Shown here: positions 1,638-12,836 of the stretch, piece by piece
How the letters are laid out: each line of letters begins with the position of its first letter
Position numbering within the stretch: the stretch's first letter is position 1
From: an uncultured Candidatus Saccharibacteria bacterium
Lineage (GTDB): Bacteria; Patescibacteriota; Saccharimonadia; Saccharimonadales; UBA4665
Assembly: GCA_964588575.1 (NCBI GenBank)
Contig: CAZPPY010000001.1
Location: 1 to 29,007, forward strand
DNA length: 29,007 nt
Direction of reading: 5' to 3'
Translations under genes and position numbers: made by a program
The notes under the pieces: model-generated
Told to the model about the DNA's origin: nothing
The model's input: only the letters and a program-made list of their open reading frames with translations
Database searches by the model: none

Positions 1638-1714
1638 TGGTGGAGCATAAGGGATTCGAACCCTTGACCTCATCCATGCCATGGATGCGCGCTAGCCAAC
1701 TGCGCTAATGCCCC
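1638..1714 (-). tRNA. tRNA-Ala (GGC)
   Basis: GGGGCATTAGCGCAGTTGGCTAGCGCGCATCCATGGCATGGATGAGGTCAAGGGTTCGAATCCCTTATGCTCCACCA: cloverleaf, G3:U70 pair, GGC anticodon, encoded CCA. Confidence 0.97.
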
Positions 1715-1798
1715 TCGTCGGCATCGGCTAGTGAAGCTAGCCGGCCGACGAGCAGAAAAAAAGTTTCATGCTCATCAGCCGCCTAGCTTGCTGCCGTG

Positions 1799-1850
1799 CC
1801 TCCTCTCAAAATTCCATTCAGTCGCTAACGCTCCTTGGATTGGAATTTTG
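1799..1850. repeat. Dispersed hairpin element, copy 1 (tRNA-Ala 5' leader)
   Basis: cctcctctcaaaattCcattcagtcg-ctaacg-ctccttggattgGaattttg; matches 12594-12655. Confidence 0.85.
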
Positions 1851-1908
1851 GAAAAACAACAATGAACAGGACAAATTTTAGCAGATTACTTCTTGAAATT
1901 GAAGTAGC

Positions 1909-9438: not shown

Positions 9439-9480
9439 GTAATTTGTCAAATGAACTCCAGCAGCACCCTGGAACCCATA

Positions 9481-9494
9481 TATCTTATCTGTTT
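9481..9494 (-). promoter_or_regulatory. Putative tRNA-Leu promoter motif (AAACAGA-TAAGAT-A)
   Basis: Identical 14-mer upstream of the other tRNA-Leu (12692-12705); contains a TAnnnT hexamer. Confidence 0.55.
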
Positions 9495-12406: not shown

Positions 12407-12443
12407 AATATAAAATACCCGGCAAAACCGGGTATTTTATATT
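12407..12443. terminator. 16-bp-arm hairpin directly after the tRNA-Leu(CAG) CCA
   Basis: AATATAAAATACCCGG-caaaa-CCGGGTATTTTATATT. Confidence 0.75.
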
Positions 12444-12526
12444 GGTGCGCGAGAGAGGACTCGAACCTCCACACCTTGCGGCACTAGTACCTGAAACTAG
12501 CGCGTCTACCATTCCGCCACTCGCGC
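12443..12526 (-). tRNA. tRNA-Leu (CAG)
   Basis: GCGCGAGTGGCGGAATGGTAGACGCGCTAGTTTCAGGTACTAGTGCCGCAAGGTGTGGAGGTTCGAGTCCTCTCTCGCGCACCA. Confidence 0.97.
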
Positions 12527-12593
12527 ACGTCGGAACCTACACATAAGCCTCATTTTGCCATAAACGGCAAAAGCTTCGGCCTATTGCTATGTT

Positions 12594-12655
12594 CCTCCTC
12601 TCAAAATTGCATTCAGTCGTCCGCCAACCGGCGGACTCCTTGGATTGCAATTTTG
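12594..12655. repeat. Dispersed hairpin element, copy 2 (tRNA-Leu CAG 5' leader)
   Basis: cctcctctcaaaattGcattcagtcg-tccgccaaccggcgga-ctccttggattgCaattttg; matches 1799-1850. Confidence 0.85.
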
Positions 12656-12836
12656 CTTTAGCCGCAAAGAACAATTTGCTCAGAACGAGATTATCTTATC
12701 TGTTTTGGCGCTAAAACGCAAGCTTGTCGTATGTATAAATGTGCTCGTTCTGTCACTTCAGTTGCCCGGAAAAGGCAGATCGAGCCGCATTGCAACCTAA
12801 GACAGAACCTACTTGAGCGCAACAGGTTTTGTTTCT

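Follow-up and report, generated by a model that had tools for sequence, protein, structure and literature searches.

Background

Bacterial pre-tRNA leaders are normally short, unconserved and unstructured; a functional tRNA spacer is exemplified by the 3'ETS-leuZ sponge of E. coli. In Firmicutes, STAB-SD and related stabilisers of mRNA 5' ends are found in the cryIIIA, ermC and aprE leaders, and in phage T4 gene 38 a hairpin bridges the Shine-Dalgarno (SD) sequence and the start codon. In the eukaryotic MALAT1/mascRNA system, RNase P makes the 3' end of an RNA at a downstream tRNA-like structure, a tRNA mimic. Dispersed non-coding hairpin repeats, which may be present or absent between close relatives, include the REP/REPIN-RAYT system and MITEs such as Correia, RUP and ERIC; REP/REPIN sequences are palindromes of 20-40 nt, often in inverted pairs, scattered in intergenic regions and not tied to a fixed gene boundary.

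The element described here was detected in a 29,007-nt stretch of DNA (the window) from an uncultured Candidatus Saccharibacteria genome of 1.08 Mb in 162 contigs, 95.7% complete and with 3.6% estimated contamination. With ordinary pre-tRNA and pre-tmRNA leaders and with 3'ETS-leuZ it shares a putative co-transcription with the tRNA, a boundary at the RNase P site and the possible release of a separate RNA, but, in contrast to ordinary leaders, it is about 120 nt long, occurs on tRNAs of all identities and is kept across a class. It resembles REP/REPIN sequences and MITEs as a dispersed hairpin repeat, but is a two-domain unit of 118-136 nt, found mostly in one orientation and flush with position +1 of the tRNA. 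With STAB-SD leaders it has in common an SD-like tract (GAAAGGAGG there, GAGAGGAG or GAAAGGAG here), located in an untranslated leader beside a 5' hairpin, complementary to the 3' tail of 16S rRNA and without a start codon of its own. It differs from them in being a conserved two-hairpin fold on tRNA and tmRNA genes, which ends exactly at the mature 5' end, reaches 19 copies per genome and is putatively removed by processing.

At least a third of the sampled Saccharimonadia genomes carry this covarying fold on tRNAs of every identity and on the tmRNA, with a full-length SD tract beside the RNase P site, in leaders which are usually treated as disposable. The preferred explanation, held tentatively and at a probability of roughly 0.4, is a transcribed leader to which the 30S subunit binds and which RNase P removes; it is followed, in decreasing order, by a selfish element, a trans-acting RNA, a ribozyme or guide defining RNA ends, and a sensor leader. 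Each of these readings, if true, would be new for tRNA biogenesis, by way of a link to the ribosome, an abundant excised RNA, a means of defining 5' ends or a joining to RNA ends.

Architecture of the element

Both copies in the window (1715-1850 and 12527-12655) lie on the minus strand, which is that of the adjoining tRNA gene in either case, in agreement with the preliminary description of this DNA. Each is composed of a hairpin (P1), a single-stranded GAGAGGAG tract, a second hairpin (P2) of variable size and a GACGA tail. The features of the two loci, together with those of an empty comparator, are listed below.

1875..1883, minus strand: TGCTAAAAT, likely extended -10 element judged from the sequence, 25 nt upstream of P1 of copy 1
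1715..1850, minus strand: leader element, copy 1, before tRNA-Ala(GGC), with about 45 nt inserted in domain 2
1807..1850, minus strand: domain 1 (P1) of copy 1, from the fold, the consensus structure and pair counts
1799..1806, minus strand: purine tract AGAGGAGG of copy 1, within the conserved UUGAGAGGAG; SD-like, unpaired in the consensus
1720..1798, minus strand: domain 2 (P2) of copy 1, a long hairpin with the insertion, from the alignment and the covariance model (CM) alignment
1715..1719, minus strand: GACGA tail of copy 1; its last base is position -1 of tRNA-Ala (distance 0)
1638..1714, minus strand: tRNA-Ala(GGC) with encoded CCA (ARAGORN; Rfam, 64.1 bits; CCA check)
9439..9494, minus strand: tRNA-Leu(GAG), empty comparator, with the same promoter block as copy 2, a 42-nt leader and no CM match
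12693..12721, minus strand: promoter-like block TTGCGT-17 nt-TAAGAT, 37 nt upstream of P1 of copy 2
12527..12655, minus strand: leader element, canonical copy 2, before tRNA-Leu(CAG), from CM matches
12602..12655, minus strand: domain 1 (P1) of copy 2, with an extended tip hairpin of 7 bp; fold z-score -4.5
12594..12601, minus strand: purine tract AGAGGAGG of copy 2, single-stranded when the precursor is folded
12532..12593, minus strand: domain 2 (P2/P3) of copy 2, from the consensus structure and pair counts
12527..12531, minus strand: GACGU tail of copy 2; its last base is position -1 of tRNA-Leu (distance 0)
12443..12526, minus strand: tRNA-Leu(CAG) with encoded CCA (ARAGORN, Rfam, CCA check)

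On the tRNA strand, P1 starts from a 10-bp A/U-rich stem, in which CAAAAUUSCA is paired with UGSAAUUUUG; a bulged CA separates this stem from two further pairs, beyond which are a tandem G-A/A-G loop and a tip whose length varies. Copy 1 has the same 10-bp base, CA bulge and tandem internal loop, and its tip is made of 2 bp and a GUUA loop. An invariant tract, UUGAGAGGAG, is located directly 3' of P1. The outer stem of P2 may be GAAGC:GCUUC, GGAAC:GUUCC or, in the copy preceding tRNA-His, CGAAC:GUUCG, so that the GGAAC:GUUCC stem of copy 2 covaries with the GAAGC:GCUUC of other copies; the interior of P2, fully represented in copy 2, contains a CGAAGC loop opposite CGAG and an inner hairpin, UUUUGCC:GGCAAAA. 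The tail is single-stranded and its last base corresponds to tRNA position -1, sometimes with 1-3 additional bases. When all copies were extracted from the genome, conservation and covariation turned out to be unbroken up to the base preceding the tRNA.

The similarity between the two copies had originally been noticed as four identical blocks on the plus strand, all of which are present: CCTCCTCTCAAAATT (1799-1813 and 12594-12608), CATTCAGTCG (1815-1824 and 12610-12619), CTCCTTGGATTG (1831-1842 and 12636-12647) and AATTTTG (1844-1850 and 12649-12655). The compensatory swap of a stem pair (C1814/G1843 versus G12609/C12648) and the variable tip, where one copy has ctaacg and its counterpart a 6-bp hairpin, were likewise found as described. 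A distance of 67-84 nt had been reported between the hairpin and the tRNA genes: the two values are right for the hairpin (84 nt, 1715-1798, and 67 nt, 12527-12593), but the sequence filling the gap is domain 2, hence the element as a whole is flush with the tRNA, the flagged hairpin is merely its 5' domain, and the boundaries had been misjudged.

Scores against the two covariance models were 64.1 bits (E 1e-10) with R1 and 67.3 bits with R2 for copy 1, and 121.4 bits (E 6e-23) and 114.4 bits, respectively, for copy 2. The variant domain 2 of copy 1 is common to its ortholog in genome G001 (locus L092). The insertion in this domain (1740-1790, minus strand) contains CUGAUGAG...GAAAC, together with a run of seven U followed by a 13-bp hairpin. 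A reading of CUGAUGAG...GAAAC as a hammerhead was discarded: stem II is missing, the motif is lost in the G001 ortholog and neither CM nor Rfam matches were obtained.

Conservation of the fold and strand specificity

Already in a set of seven copies from the same genome, folded by RNAalifold, compensatory changes are seen in 14 out of 40 pairs. A larger structural alignment was assembled from 81 copies, found in 17 genomes of the same order. Here 91% of the stem cells are paired, against 71% in shuffles and 30-45% in a control where the partners are slid by 1-3 columns, and changes on both sides are observed for 38 of the 40 pairs, including 22 of the 24 pairs of helices 3-5, which belong to domain 2. 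G-U pairs outnumber A-C mismatches (148 versus 52 and 101 versus 54, about 3:1 overall), which means that the fold is selected on one strand, as RNA, and points to a single transcribed strand. The predicted 244-nt precursor folds with the same P1 and P2, leaving the purine tract unpaired (z = -4.0), and the element has in general a compact, stable fold, with z-scores from -4.0 to -4.5.

Primary sequences are much less uniform than the fold: mean identity is 0.65 among the copies of the genome and about 0.70 within the genus, for paralogs and for copies on the same tRNA alike, and, at a copy-to-copy identity of about 65-80%, stems are intact throughout. What is kept over a wide range of lineages is P1 with a CCAAG/CUG asymmetric loop, the purine tract, a second hairpin, ranging in length from about 12 to 75 nt, and the GACGA end; the tip of P1 is frequently a GNNA tetraloop. 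The conserved internal loops suggest a tertiary fold. Additional tertiary pairs, proposed by a naive all-against-all covariation screen, were rejected as noise originating from conserved G and U columns.

Conserved internal loops within a multi-helix fold located in a leader are typical of aptamers, and the stable-RNA genes which carry the element are usually controlled by growth rate. Both features would agree with a sensor leader, riboswitch-like or protein-binding, which tunes tRNA output, for example to the growth state. This is the least likely of the readings considered, since no expression platform is found: terminator-like sites and terminator/anti-terminator alternatives are absent and the SD-like tract is unpaired, not sequestered, in the folds. 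Moreover the size of P2 is dispensable, the tip of P1 varies and Rfam reports no match; CsrA, taken into account as a partner, was dismissed, its gene being absent.

Location at tRNA and tmRNA genes

A CM search detects the element at 18-19 places in its own genome, at least 16 of which precede tRNA genes, for Leu, Ala, Arg, Met, Ser, His, Gly, Glu and Asp, out of a total of 29 tRNA genes found by ARAGORN. Another copy precedes, by 2 nt, the gene for the tmRNA (80.8 bits with the Rfam tmRNA model). As hundreds of further copies exist in relatives, chance similarity is excluded, and the proposal of a repeated, covarying hairpin family tied to pre-tRNA leaders was borne out by scanning the genome and its relatives with the CM.

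An enrichment at tRNA 5' ends had also been anticipated, and is evident in two sets of data. In relatives, a tRNA predicted by ARAGORN, whatever its identity, begins within 0-5 nt of the end of 65 of the 81 copies. Most of the remaining 16 abut a tRNA cut by a contig end, an interrupted tRNA or a tmRNA, the 5' end of the latter being abutted by two copies. An independent sample, made up of one genome per GTDB species, was scanned by using a pattern which contains P1 and the purine tract only. Matches were nearly all from Saccharibacteria, Saccharimonadia or Patescibacteria MAGs, and 77 of 99 model matches were flush (0-5 nt) with a tRNA in the sense orientation; given 130 tRNAs in 548 kb, the probability for a random place to be flush is below 0.001. 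tRNAs with a CAT anticodon are over-represented, accounting for 13 of the 65 and 20 of the 77 copies.

Some copies occupy spacers between two tRNA genes, such as Gly-Arg on contig C7 and Thr-Gly on contig C57 of the genome under study, and Ile-Ala, Ser-Ser and Phe-Gly in relatives, a position which implies that they are transcribed. RNase P RNA is encoded in the genome and is canonical in carriers and non-carriers alike. The element thus combines what is expected of a pre-tRNA 5' leader, namely the contact with position +1, the presence in spacers following tRNA-Gly and tRNA-Thr and the availability of RNase P RNA, with a transcription start that is putative. Direct pairing with RNase P RNA was considered and rejected, as CUCCUCUC, CUCCUUUC and UCGUC are absent from the RNase P RNAs of two carriers and two non-carriers.

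In a distinct arrangement, observed for 15 copies (11 in other classes and 4 in Saccharibacteria MAGs), the GACG end meets, to within -1 to +2 nt, a tRNA of the opposite strand at its CCA end. In genome G319, which belongs to another Patescibacteria class, one of these copies shares a block with the 16S promoter; a role as stable-RNA promoter block was rejected, since the other copies are without it. In the same genome a 113-aa membrane-protein ORF is found between two inverted element copies (L141:300-1120), each abutting a tRNA-Met gene at its CCA end, and this pair of tRNA genes is convergent.

tRNA-Ala(GGC), tRNA-Ala(CGC) and tRNA-Arg(CCT), in the window (trailer at 1626-1637) and on contigs C24 and C100, have trailers which begin CCA|CGTCCGA, the complement of the element's GACG tail, and no element is detectable at these trailers; a trailer starting with CCA|CGTC is common after tRNAs in other Patescibacteria.

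A composite structure was noted at L026:1220-1640 (contig C24 of the same genome, minus strand). Downstream of a copy with a short P2, 57 nt from the 5' part of tRNA-Asp(GTC) are present as a direct repeat, then a structured insert of 132 nt and finally the intact tRNA-Asp, a layout that looks like the scar of a T-loop insertion which brought its own tRNA 5' part. The succession of an element, the first 15-25 nt of a tRNA, 90-150 nt of other sequence and the whole tRNA recurs at L049, L096, L101, L210, L195, L234 and L249.

The purine tract and its possible role

The purine tract is invariant in eight copies of the genome and unpaired in all folds. In two relatives, the 3' tail of 16S rRNA reads ACCUCCUUUCU; 16S rRNA is missing from the assembly of the carrier genome itself, a point against the leader reading. 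Pairing with this tail extends over 8 bp, one of which is a G-U, for GAGAGGAG and over 9 bp for GAGAGGAGG, while GAAAGGAG, the variant of other classes, is its perfect complement. The tract is accordingly complementary to the anti-SD sequence and, as in STAB-SD leaders, is not followed by a conserved start codon; a small ORF downstream of it was rejected, no reading frame being conserved either.

In other Patescibacteria classes a few copies precede protein-coding genes. The GACGA tail is located from -1 to +1 nt relative to the start codons of the genes encoding L32, L11 and MraZ (rpmF, rplK and mraZ), and 13-17 nt before Hsp20 and tyrosine recombinase genes; Pfam alignments start at residues 1-9 of these proteins, which supports the start codons. 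The only SD sequence of rpmF, rplK and mraZ is about 75 nt upstream of the AUG, and the spacing between GGAG and AUG becomes 5-7 nt once P2 is looped out, as for the bridging hairpin of T4 gene 38; sites of the latter kind are, however, single-gene curiosities, whereas the element is reused, and mostly before untranslated genes. A good promoter, TTGACG-17-TATACT, is present upstream of the rpmF copy. The large variation of P2, against the constancy of P1, purine tract and GACGA, fits a spacer hairpin which joins two motifs. The purine tract would follow the logic of STAB-SD leaders and, in front of the three mRNAs, may be part of a hairpin-bridged ribosome-binding site.

According to the preferred explanation, the element would be a 5' leader module under structural constraint, transcribed as part of pre-tRNAs and pre-tmRNA, in transcripts that begin at a promoter 25-60 nt upstream, or else located in a spacer between tRNAs. 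The RNA would fold into P1 and P2, with the single-stranded UUGAGAGGAG and GACGA meeting at the foot of P2, and RNase P, cutting after GACGA, would separate a discrete RNA of about 120-170 nt from a tRNA with a mature 5' end. The purine tract may pair with the 16S rRNA tail and, P2 being looped out, the first base of the next gene would occupy the position of a start codon, 5-9 nt after GGAG. On the few mRNAs of distant lineages the module would act as a ribosome-binding site; on pre-tRNAs and pre-tmRNA, a docked 30S subunit might shield, or time, the 5' part of the precursor, as STAB-SD leaders do, with a benefit that is putative. Alternatively, the excised leader could act as an abundant SD-bearing RNA.

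Readings based on the 3' boundary

The conserved tail is always placed exactly at the RNase P site, and this is also compatible with the element being a trans-acting small RNA, such as an anti-SD or 30S sponge or a ribosome-associated RNA, for which the tRNA or tmRNA provides the RNase P signal defining the 3' end. In spacers, tRNA processing would set both ends of such an RNA; many copies would yield a tRNA-like abundance, and the fold is stable as well as compact. An analogous 3' end formation is that of MALAT1/mascRNA, from which the present case differs in that the partners are real, functional tRNAs; Rfam family RF01684 gave only a sub-threshold match, on a tRNA. Antisense tRNAs also form a cloverleaf and might be cut, partly accounting for the opposite-strand arrangement, but cleavage is then expected about 4 nt beyond the tail. 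Furthermore, the copies preceding start codons are devoid of a tRNA-like signal, and besides the SD-like tract no evident conserved region for target pairing is found. A trans-acting RNA is considered rather improbable.

The same boundary, exact to 0-3 nt before tRNAs, tmRNA and the AUG of rpmF, rplK and mraZ, might also be produced by the element itself, as a processing module which, whatever the downstream sequence, cleaves itself or guides a nuclease so that a 5' end arises precisely at the module's 3' edge. The products would be tRNA and tmRNA 5' ends made without RNase P and leaderless rpmF, rplK and mraZ mRNAs starting from AUG; such a module would mirror HDV-like ribozymes. The conserved junction where two single strands meet beside the scissile position would suit this activity, as would the GNNA tips and the internal loops, which suggest a tertiary fold. 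The presence of a canonical RNase P RNA in carriers and non-carriers speaks against it, as do the great variation in size of the P2 core and the absence of matches to Rfam ribozyme families even at E up to 10; no class of self-cleaving ribozymes is known to cut at its 3' edge without needing downstream sequence. A processing module is rated more improbable than a trans-acting RNA, and only slightly less so than a sensor.

Filled and empty loci

The leader reading places a promoter upstream of the element, except for copies in tRNA spacers, and the copies are found, as had been claimed, downstream of a conserved promoter-like block in the alignments. TGCTAAAAT is at 1883-1875, where it had been reported; TAAGAT is present too, at 12698-12693, one base away from its original placement. 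The TTGCGT-17 nt-TAAGAT block is kept before three Leu tRNA genes of the genome and, in four congeners (G002-G005), before the ortholog of tRNA-Leu(CAG). It is located 31-47 nt from the tRNA at empty sites and at least 37 nt upstream of P1 at filled ones, staying put in either case. A scan for consensus promoters and terminators, performed on both window loci, returned nothing above its thresholds, which weighs against the leader; a promoter function is inferred from the conservation of the block.

Insertion of the element between the block and the tRNA had been deduced from a 14-mer, AAACAGATAAGATA, and the distances agree: 42 nt separate it from tRNA-Leu(GAG), against about 165 nt in the case of tRNA-Leu(CAG). 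Empty sites in relatives, proposed as a check, were found: at the tRNA-Leu(CAG) locus G000, G001 and G002 carry the element, and G003 and G005 lack it. In G004 (L171:1565-1800) the place of the element is taken by a different insert, a leader of about 130 nt, apparently structured and unmatched by the model. Two tRNA-Leu(CAG) genes are present in the genome under study (window 12443-12526 and contig C11, 16241-16327), with the same promoter block and different element copies; given the contamination estimate of 3.6%, this may reflect strain heterogeneity instead of a true duplication.

Filled and empty orthologous sites within one genus are what a selfish, non-autonomous mobile element would leave, inserted at, or copied onto, tRNA gene ends, where RNA processing removes it at no cost. 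Its fold would be kept for the mobility machinery, and insertions in front of ORFs would be tolerated thanks to the SD-like tract. A REP/MITE-like family of this sort had been put forward at the outset, and the filled and empty loci lend support to its insertion-like behaviour. RAYT or IS200-type TnpA genes were looked for, as suggested, and Y1/RAYT transposases (PF01797) had no match in the 95.7%-complete genome, while six control genomes were positive. TnpB (PF07282) and reverse transcriptase (RT, PF00078) were not matched in the genome either, the search for an autonomous partner covering the Y1 transposase, TnpB and RT families. Terminal inverted repeats are absent, the ends of the element being CAAAAUU and GACGA; a comparison of filled and empty tRNA-Leu(CAG) loci revealed no target duplication, and no target motif is recognized on the left flank, where the 4-5 nt before P1 differ in all of nine copies from the genome. 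These results also set the element apart from IS200/IS605 derivatives, such as PATE and omega-RNA scaffolds, and the lack of RT from retroelement-derived sequences of the SINE-like or retron-like type. Over the class sample, RT shows no association with the element: 9 of the 56 carriers have it, as against 29 of the 95 non-carriers.

The REP/MITE label is further weakened by the strand-specific G-U bias, which indicates one RNA strand, by the age of the copies, which are diverged and still folded, and by their spread over the class and beyond. A selfish burst would give near-identical copies which then decay; here copies only 65-80% identical, and equally diverged whether paralogous or on the same tRNA, look individually constrained, and for this reason a functional leader is ranked first. 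A selfish element is regarded as unlikely, yet it is the strongest competitor of the leader, for which some observations are awkward. tRNA genes with empty sites, and entire genomes lacking the element, evidently function, and the differences among orthologous loci of one genus suit a dispensable or selfish sequence. The leader does not explain the 15 copies abutting the CCA end of opposite-strand tRNAs either. For a selfish element, the use of both +1 and the CCA end as boundaries, in either orientation, hints at a joining to RNA ends, and four of the five genomes with the opposite-strand arrangement carry RT genes, although the genome with most copies has none of the mobility genes searched. 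Encoded CCA was evaluated as a mark of retro-copying and set aside as uninformative, all tRNA genes in the genomes examined encoding it.

Distribution and database searches

Within the same order the element is present in 16 of 41 genomes, with 1-18 copies each, and in the class sample (Saccharimonadia) it was found in 56 of 151 genomes and 37 of 99 genera, with differences among families as large as 19 of 25 genomes in one and 0 of 21 in another. A sample of the phylum added 11 genomes from other Patescibacteria classes. Copy number ranges overall from 0 to 19, and complete single-contig genomes without any copy exist. Genomes with a single copy have it on different tRNAs, and copies partly cluster by genome. 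This patchy pattern suits a dispensable or selfish element and counts against the preferred leader. A phage origin was discarded, as pattern scans of viral contigs and a limited blastn search of phage genomes gave nothing.

A match to a described family was sought in Rfam 15. At the gathering threshold only tRNA and tmRNA were matched, and with E up to 10 or up to 1, for copies from the genome and distant ones, nothing was found on the element, over families including hammerhead, twister, pistol, hatchet, HDV-like ribozymes, riboswitches and r-protein leaders; a sub-threshold whalefall-1 match (24 bits, versus a threshold of 37) concerned the P2 arm. No description was found by full-text searches of the literature. 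The family, absent from Rfam and from the literature as searched, is a candidate for a new Rfam entry.

From a practical point of view, the element is a strong annotation marker for Saccharibacteria MAGs and explains many contig breaks at tRNA genes, where the repeat interrupts the assembly, as indicated by contig ends falling in copies. Contigs C107, C35 and C41 end in, or beside, an element copy, and the ends of contigs C127 and C153 overlap by 26 nt inside the copy preceding tRNA-His.
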